In this document: positions 20,329-48,456 of the stretch, piece after piece | Layout: each line of letters starts with the position of its first letter | How positions within the stretch are numbered: position 1 is the first letter of the stretch | Assembly: GCA_041572575.1 (NCBI GenBank) | Contig: JBFFSH010000004.1 | Location: 1 to 55,618, forward strand | Length of the DNA stretch: 55,618 nucleotides | Source of the DNA: Thermodesulfobacteriota bacterium | GTDB taxonomy: Bacteria > Desulfobacterota_D > UBA1144 > Nemesobacterales > N074bin48 | Reading direction: 5' to 3' | Made by a program: the position numbers and the translations under genes | Notes under the pieces: generated by a model | The model's database searches: none | Told to the model about the DNA's origin: nothing | What the model saw: the letters and a program-made list of their open reading frames with translations, nothing else

Positions 20329-22275
20329 TTACTGGGGTCTTGTAACACCCAGTTTTCTCATTCGTGCTCTGAGAGTACTCGGATTTATATCCAATATAGA
20401 AGCGGCACCTTGTTCCCCATGCACTTTCCAATTGGTTTTTTCAAGGATTTTAACAATATGATTCCTTTCTATATTCTCTAGCCTCATTAAATTCAGGTTA
20501 TCCTGCAGTTCTATATTATCAATAAACTGATCTTCTATATGAAGTGTACTTCCCTTCGAAAGTACAATATTTCTCTCTAAAACATTTTGTAGTTCTCTAA
20601 TGTTGCCCGGCCAATTATATCTCAAAAGCTTATCGTGAGATTTAACAGAAATCCGGCGTATATTTTTACCTAATTTTTTCGAGTATTGCGTTATGAAATA
20701 ATTAACTAAAAGAGGTATATCGGATTTACGTTCTCTTAGTGGGAGCACAAGTACAGGCACAACATTTAATCTATAATACAGGTCGGCTCTGAATTTATTC
20801 TGCTTGATAGAAAGTTCGAGATTTCTGTTTGTGGCAGCTATCACTCTCACGTTTACTCTTTGAGTATTACTGCTGCCTACTCTCTCATATTCCCCTTCCT
20901 GAAGAATCCTAAGAAGCTTAACCTGCAAGTCCACAGGTAATTCAGAAATTTCATCTAAAAATATGGTCCCGCCATCGGCAATCTCAAACCTGCCAATTTT
21001 TTCCTTAACAGCCCCGGTAAAAGCGCCTTTTTCATGTCCGAATAACTCACTTTCAATAAGCGTAGGAGCTATGGCTCCACAATTAACTTTTACAAATGAC
21101 CTGGTATTTCTTGAGCTTAGGTTATGAATTGCCCTTGCTATTAGTTCTTTACCAGTTCCGGTTTCCCCCAATATAAGTACAGCAGATTCAGTCGGAGCTA
21201 CGATTTCAACTTTATTAAGAATTTTCTTAAGCTCAATATCTTCACCTATTATTTCTTCAAAATTGTCATTTAATCTAATCTCTTCTTTCAGGTAAATATT
21301 TTCATGATGCAGTTGGTCTTTTAATATCTCCAACTCTTCTAATGCATTCTTTAATTCCTGGGCCTGTTTTGCATTATTAACAGATACTTCAATTTCCTTA
21401 GATACTATTTCGAGCAGTCTCAACTCGTCTTCACTAAAAGCATCCATTTCCATCGCATGTAAATTTATACAACCAATAGTCTTACCACTCTGTTTTATAG
21501 GTAGTGACAGACAGCTTTTAGTGCCGAGCTTCAGTACTTCTGGGCTTGCCTGAATTTCTTTTTCTAGATCCTCACAATATTTAGCCTTACCGGTGGAAAT
21601 AATGTTCCAGACTATGCCATTTGGATATTTGATAATTTCAAATTGCTCCAAATACCAATTTGGAAGACCTGCATAGCCGCTTAGTACCGCATTATCCTGT
21701 TCTGCAAGATATATTTCTACACCGTTTATACTATCTAAATTTTCAAAGAGGGAATTTGAAGCATTTCTCAATACTTCTTTAAGGTCTATAGTCTTATGAA
21801 TATCCTTAAGAATGTTGTTTATTATTTCTTCATTTCTATTTTTTCTTGATAATTTTAAGAGGGTTTCCTGTAAAGTTTTCTCAGATTTTCTGGTTCTGGT
21901 TATATCCTTAAAAATACATACTCTTCCAATTACCTGATCATTTAACTTTTGAGGAGTCGTGATTTTTTCAAAAATTCGTCCATCTTTAAACTCCAGTATC
22001 TCAAAAGTATCCTTCAATCTGTTATTAACGAGTTCATTAAATTTCTCGTTGTAATCTTCTGAGTGCTTAACAAGAGTACCGAAATATTCAAAAATATCTG
22101 ATTTTTTCTTACTTTCTATTTTATCGCTGGTGATTTTCCAGACATCTAAGAACTTTTCATTGTAATAAAGAAAATTACCATCAGTATCTATGATCAAAAT
22201 TCCATCTGGCTCACTATCGATAGCCGACTTAAAAAAGTCGGTGTATTCAATTATATTTTTTTTGGTAACATTCAT
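20329..22275 (-). CDS. sigma54-dependent enhancer-binding protein, PAS-GAF-AAA+-HTH (FhlA/NifA-like)
   Basis: N-terminal PAS-like and GAF-like regions, GETGTGKE, intact [28 protein letters not shown]-terminal HTH. No receiver domain. Confidence 0.93.
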
Positions 22276-22286
22276 TATTTTTAATG

Positions 22287-22317
22287 GTCATATTTTACAA
22301 CTGCTGTCATATTTGAC
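22287..22317. promoter_or_regulatory. tandem candidate upstream activator sites
   Basis: GTCATATTTTAC (22287-22298) and GTCATATTTGAC (22306-22317): 11/12 identical, 19 bp apart, GTCA-N4-TGAC dyad. Confidence 0.55.
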
Positions 22318-22375
22318 TAATATTTTTGAATACCTATTCATCTTCATACCTAACGATTTCCAAAATATTCCATAA

Positions 22376-22388
22376 ATTCAGTGACTTA
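22376..22388 (+). promoter_or_regulatory. candidate IHF site
   Basis: ATTCAGTGACTTA is one mismatch from WATCARNNNNTTR, preceded by an AT-rich tract and lying between the candidate UAS and the -24/-12 box. Confidence 0.4.
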
Positions 22389-22405
22389 AGACAGGTTTGC
22401 AGATA

Positions 22406-22421
22406 TGGCATACCCCATGCA
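22406..22421 (+). promoter_or_regulatory. sigma54 -24/-12 promoter
   Basis: TGGCATACCCCATGCA: GG and GC separated by exactly 10 nt, 36 bp upstream of the ATG with an AAGGAGGT RBS, next to a sigma54 activator gene. Confidence 0.8.
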
Positions 22422-22457
22422 TAAAGTATATTAACTTTTATTAAGGAGGTAAATAGG

Positions 22458-23201
22458 ATGAAAGTATTATATTTAGTATTTTCTCTATTACTCATATGTA
22501 TATCTTATTCAAAACCAGCAGTTTCTGAGCTGCCTGATCCGGGAATGGAAATTGATGATAGGACGGCTTTGGTAGTAACAGATCCACAAAATGATTTTCT
22601 TAGCCCCAAAGGAGTTACATGGGGTGTAGTAGGGGAAAGCGTTACAGAAAATAAGACAGTTCCTAATATTGAAAGCCTGCTAAAAATCGCCAAGGCAACC
22701 AATATTCCGGTTTTTGTATCCCCTCATTACTACTATCCTACGGATAAAGGCTGGATGTTTGAGGGAGCGCTTGAAGTTCTGATGCATAAAATCAATATGT
22801 TTGACAGAGCCGGGCCTTTATCTCTCGAAGGATTTGAGGGTTCGGGAGCGGACTTTCTCGAGCCTTACAAGCCCTACATTGAAGATGGAAAAACAGTAGT
22901 AACAAGTCCGCACAAGGTTTACGGACCCGAGGCAAATGACCTTGTATTGCAGTTAAGGAAGAGAAAGATTGATAAGGTAATACTTGCAGGTATGTCTGCA
23001 AACCTTTGTGTGGAAGCTCATATGAGAGAACTTCTCGAACAGGGTTTTGAAGTTACGGTTGTAACAGACGGCACAGCTGCTGCAAAGGTTCCTGAGGGTG
23101 ATGGTTATAAGGCAGCCATGGTCAACTTCAGATTTATGGCAAATGACCTTTGGACAACAAAAGAGGCCAATGAGAAAATGAAAAGCTTTGCTAAGAAATA
23201 A
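22458..23201 (+). CDS. exported cysteine hydrolase (isochorismatase superfamily)
   Basis: Signal peptide. Catalytic Asp (VVTDPQNDF), Lys (SPHKVYG) and Cys (GMSANLCVE). Confidence 0.88.
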   Translation: MKVLYLVFSLLLICISYSKPAVSELPDPGMEIDDRTALVVTDPQNDFLSPKGVTWGVVGESVTENKTVPNIESLLKIAKATNIPVFVSPHYYYPTDKGWMFEGALEVLMHKINMFDRAGPLSLEGFEGSGADFLEPYKPYIEDGKTVVTSPHKVYGPEANDLVLQLRKRKIDKVILAGMSANLCVEAHMRELLEQGFEVTVVTDGTAAAKVPEGDGYKAAMVNFRFMANDLWTTKEANEKMKSFAKK

Positions 23202-23279
23202 TCCTGGCAATACATATTTGCTTATTCTCTATGGAAATGATTTAGCTGTAAATATATATTAAAGGAGAGTTTTATATAA

Positions 23280-24479
23280 ATGAAAATCACAAAACTTTAT
23301 AAACTATTATTATTTTCTTTGCTGTGTATGTTCATCTCCCCCAAAATATCTAATGCACAAGCCATTGTAGTCCAGTTTCTTGGAACATCAGACGTAAGTG
23401 TACAGATGATAGACACCGATGGTGACGGAGAAAATGACGTGGAGTCTAACTGCTATGAAAACGACCTGGTTGATCCAACCAGCGGAGAAGTAGTTGGCAC
23501 TGGTCTTGATTGCCTCAGAGATATAGTAGCTAATGAGGATGGAAGTGTAACTCTTATAAGCAATATATTCTTTGATTTCGATGGATTCGGGCTTATTTCT
23601 TCTGAAGGTACAACCACGGTTCAGCCATTACTGACTCAATCTGCTCTGGATGCGGGGCTTACAAACGGCACCGGTTCCTTTTCAGATGAGGATACAATAA
23701 TGTTTGGCACAGGGGTATTTGAAGATGCTACGGGTAATGTACGTTTATCCGGCCTTGTTGACCTTAGCAGTTTTCCAAATGAAGCATTTTTTAACTGTGT
23801 TTTTGAAATAGCAGTGGATGGCGATCCTGCCCCAAATATCACAGGAAGCGGTGATGAGGCTATAGTAGTCAAATTTCTGGGAACAGACTCCGGACAGGAT
23901 ACAATGATCGACACCGATGGTGATGATGTAAATGATGTGGAATCTACATGCTTTGAAAATGATCTTGTAGACCCAAATACCGGTAATGTTGTAGGGCATG
24001 GAATTGACTGTCTAAGAGATATAACACCGGTTGAAGATACAAATGGTCTTACTCTTACAAGCAACATATTCTTCACATTTGATAGTGGAGGGCTAAATGG
24101 TCTGATATCCTCAGAAGGTACAACCACTGTGCAGCCCCTGGTTACAGATTCTGCATTGGATGCGGGTCTAACTCATCAAACCCAGTCCTTTAGAGATAAT
24201 GATACTATCAAATTTGGGACTGGTGATTTTGCAGGCGCTACTGGAAACGCCAGACTATCGGGACTTGTGGATTTAACTACTTTTCCAGACGATACCTTTT
24301 TCAATTGCATGTTTATTATTAAGGCAAACAGGATTGTTGGTGTTAAAAGCGGAAGCGGATGTGCTCTGGCATCAAATAATGATTATGCACAAAGCGGTGC
24401 TATTAATTATTTAATGATGTTATTGGTTCCGTTGTTGATAATTGGTATCAGAAAAAGATATTTTGCAAGTAATTCTTAG
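23280..24479 (+). CDS. exported protein with two tandem ~150-aa repeats and a C-terminal membrane anchor
   Basis: Signal peptide, two homologous domains, then SGSGC-spacer-hydrophobic helix-RKR tail. AAGGAG RBS. Confidence 0.85.
   Translation: MKITKLYKLLLFSLLCMFISPKISNAQAIVVQFLGTSDVSVQMIDTDGDGENDVESNCYENDLVDPTSGEVVGTGLDCLRDIVANEDGSVTLISNIFFDFDGFGLISSEGTTTVQPLLTQSALDAGLTNGTGSFSDEDTIMFGTGVFEDATGNVRLSGLVDLSSFPNEAFFNCVFEIAVDGDPAPNITGSGDEAIVVKFLGTDSGQDTMIDTDGDDVNDVESTCFENDLVDPNTGNVVGHGIDCLRDITPVEDTNGLTLTSNIFFTFDSGGLNGLISSEGTTTVQPLVTDSALDAGLTHQTQSFRDNDTIKFGTGDFAGATGNARLSGLVDLTTFPDDTFFNCMFIIKANRIVGVKSGSGCALASNNDYAQSGAINYLMMLLVPLLIIGIRKRYFASNS
23361..24320 (+). repeat. intragenic tandem domain duplication (23361-23810 and 23859-24320)
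   Basis: Shared blocks AIVV.FLGT, MIDTDGD..NDVES.C.ENDLVDP, DCLRDI, GLISSEGTTTVQPL, SALDAGLT, FGTG.F..ATGN.RLSGLVDL..FP...FFNC.F.I. Also visible at DNA level (GACACCGATGGTGA; GAAGGTACAACCAC). Confidence 0.95.
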
Positions 24480-24485
24480 AGTGAT

Positions 24486-24521
24486 TTAAACCCACCTCAA
24501 TATTATTTGAGGTGGGTTTAA
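24486..24521. terminator. bidirectional intrinsic terminator
   Basis: Perfect 15-bp inverted repeat TTAAACCCACCTCAA / TTGAGGTGGGTTTAA between convergent genes. Confidence 0.8.
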
Positions 24522-24534
24522 TACTATCTTGTTT

Positions 24535-25023
24535 TTAATCTCTCCATTTACTGAATACATAATCAGATTCTTTTTGAGACTGATGGCAGCTAAAGCAGCT
24601 TTGCCCTCCGTCTGCAACAAGGCGCTCTGTTTTACTGTCCCCTGCAAATCCTTCGAATCCCCAGCCTCCTGTGGATGCATATGCGGCTGAATCTTTTTGC
24701 ATAATACCAATTAGTTTTCTATCTGATTCCTGAATTGTCTTATCGGCCTGATTATAATTTAAAAGATCAAACACAATAACAGCACCATCCTGAAAAGTGC
24801 CTGATCTATAACCCTCAATTGCTTGTTCGTTGCCATAGATATGGTGTATACCCTGAAACGGATTTTCAAGCGGATGTCCAGGCTCTATAACCATTGTTTT
24901 TACATGTGTCCAGCTCCGGTAACCATCCGGATATGCAATCTGTGAGCTTTGTCCAACGGTTTTCATACACCCAACAGCTCCAACGACTAAAACAAATACA
25001 CCAAAGACGATAGATTTTTTCAT
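24535..25023 (-). CDS. cytochrome P460/c'-beta family lipoprotein (c'-beta type)
   Basis: Start moved to ATG 25023 (AAGGAGG RBS). Lipobox AVG-C. YPDGYRSW, F.DGAVIVF, GGWGF, C-terminal heme motif CFSCH, DYVFS. Confidence 0.85.
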   Translation of the reverse strand: MKKSIVFGVFVLVVGAVGCMKTVGQSSQIAYPDGYRSWTHVKTMVIEPGHPLENPFQGIHHIYGNEQAIEGYRSGTFQDGAVIVFDLLNYNQADKTIQESDRKLIGIMQKDSAAYASTGGWGFEGFAGDSKTERLVADGGQSCFSCHQSQKESDYVFSKWRD

Positions 25024-25048
25024 TAAAAGCCTCCTTATAAGCATTATA

Positions 25049-25069
25049 TTGGTATCGACTCTATACTAT
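25049..25069. promoter_or_regulatory. candidate MarR operator 1
   Basis: TTGGTATCGA-C-TCTATACTAT, 17/20 arm matches to the dyad ATAGTATCGA-N-TCGATACTAT inferred from both sites. Confidence 0.6.
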
Positions 25070-25096
25070 ATATCAAATATAAAACTACTTGTCAAG

Positions 25097-25117
25097 ATAG
25101 TTTTGCCACGATACTAT
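25097..25117. promoter_or_regulatory. candidate MarR operator 2
   Basis: ATAGTTTTGC-C-ACGATACTAT, 16/20 arm matches to the same dyad, ending 9 bp before the MarR start. Confidence 0.55.
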
Positions 25118-25126
25118 TATAAAGAT

Positions 25127-25696
25127 ATGAAACAATCGCAAATTCTGGAACTAATCGAGAGAATCGGAAATCTACTGAGAGCAGAGCAGAGGATAATAGG
25201 CTCTGCACAACAGCTTCAGCCTGTACACATTCAGGTTCTTGAATACCTAAACCGGTGCAATAAATACAGCAACACACCCGCAGGAGTCGTTAAATATTTT
25301 GGTATTACAAAGGGAACAGTATCACAATCTATAAATGTTCTTGAAAAAAGATCACTTGTAGAAAAGAAAACTGATCTTGCAGACAAAAGGTCTGTGCACA
25401 TTATTATTACTGCAAAGGGGAAAAAATTGCTAAAAACCCTTTTAATAAAAAGAAGTTCTTTTGAATTAGCAAAAAACACAGATAGCAAAATCAATAACTT
25501 GGTAGAAACTGAACTTAAAAACATATTAGCTAATTTGCAAAAACATAACTCTTATAACACCTTCGGAGTATGCAATACATGTAGACATCTAATCACAGAG
25601 CAAAATGGATTTAGATGTGGATTAACTAAAGAAGTGTTGTCATCCACTGATACAACTAAGATATGCCATGAGCATGAATACTCTGAGGCAGTCTAA
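25127..25696 (+). CDS. MarR-family winged-helix regulator with C-terminal C-x2-C-x11-C-x15-C motif
   Basis: ITKGTVSQSINVLEKRSLVEKK.D..DKRSVHIIITAKG wHTH, then FGVCNTC...RCGLT...ICHEH. Start placed at MKQSQ because the upstream in-frame extension runs through the operators. Confidence 0.85.
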   Translation: MKQSQILELIERIGNLLRAEQRIIGSAQQLQPVHIQVLEYLNRCNKYSNTPAGVVKYFGITKGTVSQSINVLEKRSLVEKKTDLADKRSVHIIITAKGKKLLKTLLIKRSSFELAKNTDSKINNLVETELKNILANLQKHNSYNTFGVCNTCRHLITEQNGFRCGLTKEVLSSTDTTKICHEHEYSEAV

Positions 25697-47258: not shown

Positions 47259-48456
47259 TTGAAACCTCTTCCAATACAGTTCTAATTATACCAAGTGCAA
47301 TATCTATCTCTTTTTTACCTGCAATTAGCGGGGGCAGAATTCTTATATTTTTTTGTTCAGTTATGATTGTGAGAAGCCCCCTTTTATATAATTTTTTAAC
47401 AACCTCTGATGCATATTTATTATTTGCAAGCTCTATGCCAATAATAAACCCGCTGCCTCTCACTTCTTTTATGATATTGCTGTTATGTGATTGTACCTCT
47501 TTTAGTTTTGAAATGAAGTAAGAGCCCAGTGTTTGCACATTATCAAGCAGACCATCATCCATTATGGTGCTTATAACGCTATAACCAACGCTCATGGCAA
47601 GTGGGTTTCCTCCCATTGTAGAACCATGAGAGCCCGGGGTCAGATATTTTGCATGCTTGTTTTTTGCAAGCAGCGCCCCGCAGGCAAGCCCGCCTCCAAG
47701 CGCTTTTGCAAGCGTCATAAGGTCTGGCTTAAAACCAAGCTGTTCATAGGCAAACATGCTTCCGGTTCTTCCAACACCAACCTGAATCTCGTCTAATATG
47801 AATAAGATATTGTTTTGATTACATAGTTTTCGGACTTTTTTCAAATACCCATTTGGTGGAATTATTACTCCATTTTCACCCTGTATGGGTTCGAGTATTA
47901 CGGCGCATACTTTTTTGTCACCGGCTGCTTTTTGAAGCTGGGAGAAATCACCATAATCTACAAATTTCACACCAGGCACCATCGGGTTAAAGCCCTGCCT
48001 GTACTTCTTGTGTCCCGTTATGCTAAGCGACCCGTATGACCTTCCATGAAATCCGCCTTTAGTTGATACGATTTTATACCTGCCCCCGTTTTCATTTCCC
48101 CATTTCCTTGCAAGTTTTATCGCGGCTTCGTTTGCTTCGGCTCCGCTGTTGCAAAAAAACACCCGGTCTGCAAATGAATTTTCAACGAGAAGCCTTGCAA
48201 GTTTTCCCTGTTCTTCGGTATAAAAGAGGTTTGAGCTGTGAACGATCTTATTTAACTGAGAAGATATTGCTTTTTTAACTTTCGGATGATTATGACCAAG
48301 GTTATTGACTGCAATACCCGTAGTAAAGTCCAGATATTTATTGCCCTCGAAATCCCAGACCCAGCATCCTTTGGCTTTTTGCAGTGCTATGGGGTATCTT
48401 CCGTAATTTTTAAATCCATAGCTGTCCAGAGCAGCTATTACATCAGAAGATTTCAT
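47251..48456 (-). CDS. argD: acetylornithine aminotransferase
   Basis: [38 protein letters not shown]. Located between argB and argF. Confidence 0.94.

Follow-up and report, generated by a model that had tools for sequence, protein, structure and literature searches.

A gene at 23280..24479 (+ strand) of contig JBFFSH010000004.1, from the Thermodesulfobacteriota bacterium assembly GCA_041572575.1, encodes a tandem pair of predicted beta-barrel domains related to allene oxide cyclases (AOC) and dirigent proteins. The whole stretch analysed, positions 1 to 55,618 of this contig, is referred to below as the window. We consider it fairly probable that the protein is an exported, membrane-tethered pair of disulfide-stapled barrels, which is controlled by sigma-54 and binds and possibly converts a small molecule, plausibly one linked to a neighbouring hydrolase. 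The fold assignment is solid and the protein family is large and unannotated; the function is what we infer. Barrels of the dirigent and AOC type need no cofactors to control reactive intermediates, and there is demand for them as stereoselective biocatalysts; their bacterial relatives have so far been catalogued only through the Pfam Dirigent model, with no substrate assigned to any of them. What is new here is a family that neither Pfam nor NCBIfam detects, that comprises at least 369 clusters at 50% identity and is spread over many phyla; it belongs to a known fold class and is not a new kind of system.

The tandem-barrel protein, its fold and its family

The gene is laid out as follows.

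23280..24479, + strand: complete open reading frame (ORF) of 399 amino acids (aa) for an exported protein with tandem barrels and a membrane anchor at its C-terminus, as judged from the ORF and its orthologues
23280..23357, + strand: predicted Sec-type signal peptide, aa 1-26, without lipobox, based on hydropathy; putative cleavage site, read from the sequence, between ISNA and QA
23358..23822, + strand: barrel domain 1, aa 27-181, AOC/dirigent-like fold according to AlphaFold2 (AF2), Foldseek and conservation; signature TNGTG (His to Asn)
23823..23852, + strand: linker between the domains, DPAPNITGSG, aa 182-191
23853..24332, + strand: barrel domain 2, aa 192-351, signature THQTQ, 66% identity with domain 1
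24333..24476, + strand: C-terminal tail, with a GSGC(A/S)(L/I)AS motif (24351-24374), a transmembrane helix INYLMMLLVPLLIIGI (24402-24449) and a basic end RKRYFASNS (24450-24476)
23636..24127 and 23745..23999, - strand: antisense ORFs, most simply read as chance frames

An earlier note on this DNA had proposed a duplicated domain of about 150 aa, and the duplication is borne out: domains 1 and 2 are identical at 105 of 158 positions (66%, E 9e-67), far above chance. The motifs that it quoted (three Cys per domain, acidic loops, glycine-rich stretches, TNGTG and THQTQ) are all present in their places. The span that it gave, 23280-24320, ends close to the end of domain 2, whereas the ORF runs 159 nt further, through a Gly/Ser/Cys linker, the transmembrane helix and the basic tail. 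Two orthologues of the protein are 88% (P0002) and 61% (P0003) identical to it, the former coming from a contig (L002) of a Candidatus Dadabacteria metagenome-assembled genome. Comparison with the 88%-identical orthologue gives a ratio of nonsynonymous to synonymous substitution rates (dN/dS) of 0.063 over the whole ORF, the value within domain 1 being 0.013 and that within domain 2 0.039; this is therefore a real gene under purifying selection, in which both copies are constrained. The 2.2 kb at 22280-24520 of the window are found nearly word for word (share 0.99-1.00) in 20 metagenome runs from at least 11 studies of sediment, marine sediment, estuary, soil and marine habitats, an unusually wide near-identical recovery.

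The same note had recognised an AOC/dirigent-like barrel in the repeats, and structure prediction points the same way. Given 124 homologues, AlphaFold2 returned an all-beta barrel (pLDDT 97.6, pTM 0.91) with strands, in domain numbering, at 2-18, 28-38, 45-58, 64-74, 78-90, 103-107/114-117, 125-135 and 142-154; a model built with 7 sequences (pLDDT 59.8) was kept out of the fold search. In a Foldseek search against the PDB, the best 39 matches are all barrels of the AOC, dirigent, PodA or Diels-Alderase type, with probabilities of 0.95-1.00. They include PloI4, Tsn15, Cyc15, AbyU, AbmU, AbnU and LucK, the allene oxide cyclases of Arabidopsis and Physcomitrella, PodA, and dirigent proteins acting as pterocarpan synthases; the best TMq, 0.58, is to AOC2 (2gin). 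The model thus supports membership of the domain in the AOC/dirigent-like beta-barrel superfamily at the level of fold and motif.

A word-seeded search with the barrel protein recovered three relatives only. A profile of seven domain copies, run against 1.84 billion representative proteins, recovered 369 with an E value of 1e-3 or less, of which 269 reach 1e-10 or less; the family thus has at least 369 clusters at 50% identity. A second search gave 766 clusters at 90% identity. Among 120 clusters listed, every name given by the source is 'hypothetical protein', and none carries a Pfam domain. A typical member has about 190 aa, a single domain and an export signal, a hydrophobic N-terminus being present in 125 of 145 full-length members. 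The hosts of the barrel loci belong to Gemmatimonadota, Bacteroidota, Rhodothermales, Nitrospirales, Acidobacteriota, Planctomycetota and the Alpha-, Beta- and Gammaproteobacteria. Some single-domain members (P0025, P0033, P0066, P0074 and P0117) carry long acidic low-complexity repeats rich in Asp, Tyr, Ser and Gly before and/or after the barrel, an example of the repeat unit being DDTSDDYDTGDDTSDDMTGGYGY.

The only recurrent weak Pfam match in the family is to Dirigent (PF03018), found in 16 of 124 members; the window protein itself gives no match to this model even at E<=10. The best family score, 21.3 bits (E 2.4e-4), stays below the gathering threshold of 29.1 bits. Coordinates on the hidden Markov model (HMM) were inspected for three matches, two from members and one from the family consensus; in these, the sub-threshold alignment covers only the GTGxFxxAxG motif, at about HMM positions 105-132 of 148, the equivalent place in the domain. 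Matches to PF06351 (Allene_ox_cyc; 1 of 124 members, E 0.07) and PF18678 (AOC_like; 1 of 124, E 0.053) are not significant. PDB entry 5coc, a calmodulin fusion (E 0.017), is a chance match that falls on the acidic loop region. Because no Pfam threshold is reached and the TM-scores lie at 0.44-0.58, the family is a divergent, separate member of the AOC/dirigent superfamily, not part of the dirigent or AOC family proper.

Two domain matches were found in 12 of 153 proteins scanned with the family HMM, three of the 12 looking split or partial. In a tree of 155 domain copies, the domains of the same protein are mutually closest in P0001 (support 1.0), P0006 (0.97), P0008 (0.98) and P0010 (0.96). 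The simplest reading is that tandem duplication arose independently several times, with gene conversion between the copies as an alternative. Repeated independent duplication suggests in turn that the two barrels work together.

The C-terminal tail combines a conserved GSGC(A/S)(L/I)AS motif, a 16-residue hydrophobic helix and a basic end, all kept in both orthologues. A hydrophobic C-terminal tail is present in 5 of 151 proteins, and one followed by a basic end only in the window protein and P0106. In spite of this tripartite look (Cys motif, transmembrane helix, basic end), the tail was not assigned to a class of sorting signals: NCBIfam models of such signals (PEP-CTERM, GlyGly-CTERM, MYXO-CTERM and relatives) give no match to the barrel protein at E<=10, a search with the tail recovered only the protein itself and its orthologue P0002, and no other ORF within the window carries such a tail. 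Judged from its sequence, the tail is more simply read as an ordinary type I membrane anchor whose Cys motif is conserved and juxtamembrane. The protein would then be exported by the Sec route and held by its C-terminal helix on the periplasmic face of the inner membrane. Three tandem relatives (P0009, P0099 and P0128) end in a hydrophobic tail without basic residues, similar to a glycosylphosphatidylinositol (GPI) signal, and P0099 and P0128 also do not have the motif His described below; these three proteins may be eukaryotic or anchored by a different route.

Cysteines, signature motifs and acidic loops

The following sites are located within the two barrels.

23451..23513, + strand: Cys58 and Cys78 (Cys1 and Cys2 of domain 1), in the hairpin of strands 2 and 3; probable disulfide, from co-loss and model strands
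23796..23798, + strand: Cys173 (Cys3 of domain 1), in F-x-C-x-F of the last strand; probably an unpaired core Cys
23949-23951 and 24009-24011, + strand: Cys224 and Cys244 (Cys1 and Cys2 of domain 2)
24306-24308, + strand: Cys343 (Cys3 of domain 2)
23706-23753 (domain 1, GTGVFEDATGNVRLSG) and 24216-24263 (domain 2, GTGDFAGATGNARLSG), + strand: glycine-rich dirigent/AOC-like motif
23661-23675 (domain 1, TNGTG) and 24171-24185 (domain 2, THQTQ), + strand: T-H-x-T-G site
23412..23438, + strand: acidic loop DTDGDGEND of domain 1, between strands 1 and 2, candidate Ca2+ site
23910..23936, + strand: acidic loop DTDGDDVND of domain 2, with the motif Gly changed to Asp

Each domain holds exactly three Cys (58, 78 and 173 in the first, 224, 244 and 343 in the second), in the contexts ESNC/ESTC, LDCL/IDCL and FNCV/FNCM (domain 1/domain 2); outside the barrels, the signal peptide contributes C16 and the tail C361. 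The expectation that the three Cys would be conserved in homologues agrees with the alignment, in which 147 of 165 domain copies have the full set. In four complete copies (P0103, P0145 and both domains of P0010), Cys1 and Cys2 are missing as a pair and Cys3 is kept; among complete copies, Cys2 alone is lost in one and Cys3 alone in one. Since Cys1 and Cys2 are lost together and lie on neighbouring hairpin strands of the model (28-38 and 45-58), we infer that they probably form a cross-strand disulfide, which would staple each barrel. Cys3 probably is an unpaired cysteine of the barrel core or lumen, because the alternation pattern of strand 8 places it on the hydrophobic face I-F-C-F-I-L, and it would thus stand free on the core face of the last strand. 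The earlier suggestion of one disulfide plus one free Cys per domain fits the pattern of loss. In bacterial dirigent-like proteins of the PF03018 type, two Cys in consecutive strands are present in 42 of 49 sequences and are predicted to form a disulfide (PMC9344732), and the bond proposed here matches that prediction.

The cores of the glycine-rich motif, GTGVFEDATG in domain 1 and GTGDFAGATG in domain 2, both conform to G(G)TGxFxxAxG. The second signature, T-H-x-T-G at domain positions 102-106, is near-invariant in the family, with His in 152 of 165 copies. In the window protein, domain 1 has Asn in place of this His, and domain 2 keeps the His and has Gln in place of the Gly; Asn also replaces the His in domain 1 of P0002 and in both domains of P0003. 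The difference between TNGTG and THQTQ had been taken for a variable pocket position. It is real, but it is not a mere variable residue: it falls on this near-invariant signature, from which both copies deviate. As far as the sequences tell, the Dadabacteria clade has remodelled the signature while under strong purifying selection. Other near-invariant positions are G9, G47, D51, F72, G78, R-L-S-G-x-V (129-134), F145 and F149.

The loss of the signature His bears on whether the barrels of this clade are enzymes. If the His is catalytic, the window protein may therefore only bind its ligand. The protein could then be a non-catalytic carrier or sequestering protein, holding a small molecule that is hydrophobic or toxic at the surface of the membrane in the manner of a lipocalin after its putative catalytic His was lost. 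The replacement of His by Asn in three domains of the orthologues and in domain 1 of the window protein fits such a role, as does the strong purifying selection on both domains, which would be expected of a retained function, and dirigent proteins are themselves non-catalytic. However, a catalytic role of the His in the rest of the family has no support, domain 2 retains it, and no lipocalin is among the top 50 fold matches. We regard a pure carrier as somewhat unlikely, and continue to favour a barrel pair that binds and possibly converts its ligand.

In an exported protein, near-invariant H103, C147 and D51 (domain numbering) may also bring to mind a periplasmic metal-binding protein with the conserved His, Cys3 and Asp as ligands. 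This seems scarcely probable at all, given that the His is dispensable in the Dadabacteria clade, that each domain offers only one His and one free Cys, that metallochaperone folds are not among the fold matches and that metal-homeostasis genes were not found nearby.

The acidic loop of domain 1, DTDGDGEND, fits the pattern D-x-[DN]-x-[DN]-G with an acidic residue at +3; that of domain 2, DTDGDDVND, has Asp for the Gly. A DxDxDG(xxD) loop is present in 27-29 of 146 family domain copies (about 20%) and gives weak Pfam matches to FG-GAP/TSP3, the Ca2+-loop type of integrins. By its sequence it may bind Ca2+, and its distribution marks it as an optional embellishment of the family. Such loops in both domains, the C-terminal anchor with its conserved Cys motif and the long acidic extensions of some relatives, rich in Asp, Tyr and Ser, would also suit a Ca2+-dependent structural or adhesive protein of the cell surface, an element of the cell envelope. 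Against this, about 80% of the domain copies are without the loop, most members are small, soluble, single-domain proteins with dedicated regulators of the small-molecule type, and the fold class is enzymatic or ligand-binding, so that a surface role appears very improbable.

The adjacent hydrolase, regulation and proposed function

Three features upstream of the barrel gene are relevant to its function.

22458..23201, + strand: gene of an exported isochorismatase-family cysteine hydrolase, the upstream partner (PF00857, E 6e-28)
22406..22421, + strand: candidate sigma-54 promoter TGGCAT-N5-ATGCA, 36 nt 5' of the hydrolase ATG
20329..22275, - strand: divergent regulator with PAS, GAF, sigma54-activator and HTH_8 domains, syntenic in L002

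The hydrolase gene lies directly upstream of the barrel gene, with a gap of 78 nt. Its product scores 98.5 bits against PF00857 (cut-off 27), and 7 orthologues show no variation at Asp42, Lys153 and Cys184, which we take to be the catalytic triad of the isochorismatase-like family. The hydrolase is an equivalog of no named NCBIfam enzyme, including BiuH, RutB, PncA and YcaC. Of 25 barrel loci, 9 have the hydrolase gene next to the barrel gene (the window, L001, L002, L006, L007, L008, L017, L019 and L024); the sample of loci is biased towards canonical members, as the search used 8 typical members and the loci were limited to carriers of THITGA(V/I)P. The pair is also found in 4 further metagenome loci. 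The paired loci span at least 7 phylum-level groups, with representatives of Dadabacteria, Rhodothermales, Woeseiaceae, Bacteroidota, Betaproteobacteria, Acidobacteria and Gemmatimonadota in addition to a contig of high guanine-plus-cytosine (GC) content. Where both coordinates could be read, the spacing between the two genes is 20-160 nt. On the high-GC contig (L001, 2919-3737), next to the single-domain relative P0004, the hydrolase is split over two frames with at least 2 frame changes, and could be a pseudogene or reflect assembly errors. The hydrolase subfamily (L025-L104) is highly conserved, with 66-79% identity across 80 metagenome loci and the motifs SPHYYYPTD and GSGADF.

The association raises the possibility that the barrel is directed at its partner, as a periplasmic inhibitor, activator or tether of the adjacent hydrolase, and does not bind a small molecule. 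The tight adjacency (20-160 nt) in 9 barrel loci over many phyla would fit, and so would the membrane anchor, which at the window locus is on the barrel only. Moreover, the hydrolase copies of the 8 other paired loci, with 61-91% identity, are far better conserved than the barrels there (about 35-40%). On the other hand, 16 of the 25 barrel loci (including 2 whose upstream sequence is too short to judge) and 76 of the 80 hydrolase loci are unpaired, the buried polar and Gly motifs conserved throughout the family resemble a ligand site, and the fold class offers no precedent for such a role. We consider it quite improbable. The partner-directed, Ca2+-surface and metal-binding explanations are all less well supported than a small-molecule-binding barrel pair.

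Regarding regulation, the pattern TGGCAY-N5-WTGCW has 2 matches in the window versus 0.2 expected, the one upstream of the hydrolase and a second at 47425-47440 (- strand). The GG-N10-GC of the hydrolase promoter candidate is conserved in L002. The regulators found beside the cassettes are of the sigma54-PAS-GAF and AraC/Cupin_6 types or Reg_prop/Y_Y_Y hybrid kinases, and the usual neighbour of barrel genes without the hydrolase is a two-component system or an AraC regulator. The neighbours in the 80 hydrolase loci comprise a sigma54-PAS activator (25), an alpha/beta hydrolase (25), DUF1348/SnoaL-like (20), AraC/Cupin_6 (15), DoxX (14) and PNPOx-like proteins (13). Presumably, these variable cassettes, with barrel and hydrolase among their parts, resemble regulons for electrophile or quinone detoxification such as the MhqR regulon of Bacillus; a literature search for a link between dirigent proteins and isochorismatases, or for quinone detoxification by DoxX/MhqP, yielded nothing usable. 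Downstream, a cytochrome P460-family gene (24535-25044, - strand) is convergent to the barrel gene and stands head-to-head with a MarR-family regulator gene (25049-25696, + strand). By its arrangement it appears to lie outside the barrel module; L002 has no such gene at the equivalent position.

Taken together, these observations give a picture in which the barrel family is a small exported effector, switched on by small-molecule-sensing regulators and sometimes teamed with an exported hydrolase. In the source genome, the barrel gene would most likely be co-transcribed with the upstream hydrolase gene from the sigma-54 promoter, which the divergent PAS-GAF enhancer-binding protein would activate. 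To our knowledge, all characterised members of the fold are cofactor-free, enclose a hydrophobic or aromatic substrate and steer its isomerisation, cyclisation, coupling or tautomerisation, a chemistry that the PDB titles of the Foldseek matches illustrate. Because of this analogy with characterised AOC, dirigent proteins, pterocarpan synthases, spirotetronate Diels-Alderases and PodA, the barrels most likely would also be cofactor-free and enclose a hydrophobic or aromatic small molecule in the lumen. By the same analogy, they may, in the periplasm, hold this ligand or guide it through an isomerisation or cyclisation. It is plausible that the neighbouring hydrolase uses the ligand as its substrate or releases it as its product, and the two proteins would form an inducible module for small-molecule processing or detoxification.

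Several observations weigh against this proposal. First, sequence searches of Pfam, NCBIfam and the PDB with the whole protein, single domains and profiles gave no significant match, and the structural matches have moderate TM-scores (0.44-0.58) and a high root-mean-square deviation. Second, both copies deviate from the T-H-x-T-G signature, domain 1 by lacking the near-invariant His and domain 2 by carrying Gln for the Gly. Third, 16 of 25 barrel loci (including 2 whose upstream sequence is too short to judge) are without an adjacent hydrolase, and among 80 loci of the hydrolase subfamily a reverse search found the barrel at only 4, which rules out obligate pairing. Fourth, four runs labelled TRANSCRIPTOMIC (X25-X28) were rejected as evidence for transcription or an operon, as their contigs reach 86 kb and their coverage of 21900-25300 is even over both strands and intergenic DNA; genomic DNA is probably present in them. 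Finally, no member of the family has a known ligand, activity or experimental structure.

A more specific and decidedly unlikely version is a two-step periplasmic pathway, in which the hydrolase would unmask a reactive intermediate (for example enol, quinone-like or allylic) in a compound from the environment and the barrel would capture it and steer its cyclisation or tautomerisation. If true, bacteria would have here a first 'dirigent' system that acts outside the cytoplasm, has a defined enzymatic partner and uses a ligand-sensing sigma-54 activator as its switch; the repeated duplications would make the barrel pair the working unit, in this protein specialised into a His-less and a His-bearing copy. 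For the source genome, the broader proposal already makes of a 'hypothetical protein' one half of a periplasmic two-gene module under sigma-54 control, which can be tested. More generally, the diagnostic motifs of the family (C...DC, T-H-x-T-G, GTGxF...RLSG and F-x-C-x-F), together with the confident fold model, the probable disulfide, the recurrent hydrolase partner and the dedicated sensors, provide a handle for finding the ligand.

Comparison with known barrels

By TM-score, the closest structural match is to plant allene oxide cyclases (AOC2, 2gin; Physcomitrella AOC1/2, 4h6c and 4h69), with which the domain shares an eight-stranded antiparallel barrel (best TMq 0.58, probability 1.0). The identity to the window protein is only about 15%, however, and AOC is a plastid enzyme without these Cys. 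The lowest Foldseek E values (2e-4 to 5e-3, probability 1.0) are those of the bacterial [4+2] cyclases PloI4 (7x80), Tsn15 (6nnw), Cyc15 (8of7), AbyU (5dyv), AbmU (6ymn) and AbnU (7dvi), cofactor-free barrels that pre-organise a hydrophobic substrate; their TM-scores to the domain model are 0.40-0.48. Such spirotetronate- and abyssomicin-type cyclases are biosynthetic, presumed to be cytoplasmic, and encoded in polyketide gene clusters. In contrast, the window protein is exported, has a predicted disulfide and lies outside any biosynthetic cluster.

The pyocyanin demethylase PodA (5k21) is, like the window protein, a bacterial AOC-like barrel (TMt 0.59-0.60). It acts on an exogenous redox-active aromatic compound, so that detoxification by such a barrel outside the cytoplasm has a functional precedent. 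The identity between the two is 13-14%, and PodA is single-domain whereas the window protein is tandem.

Finally, bacterial dirigent-like (DIRL) proteins have been catalogued as PF03018 matches, with their function unassigned (Bardin et al. 2022, PMC9344732). They are mostly exported, with a signal peptide, a predicted eight-stranded barrel and a GGTG-(Y/F) stretch before strand 7 (PMC9344732). The present family resembles them in being mostly exported and predicted to form a barrel, in having two Cys on consecutive strands and in its glycine-rich motif. It differs in remaining below the PF03018 threshold (21.3 versus 29.1 bits), in having GTG and not GGTG, and in its third invariant Cys in the last strand and its T-H-x-T-G and R-L-S-G signatures. 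The optional DxDxDG loop and the recurrent tandem duplication further set the family apart from DIRL proteins, as does, in the window protein, the C-terminal transmembrane anchor.

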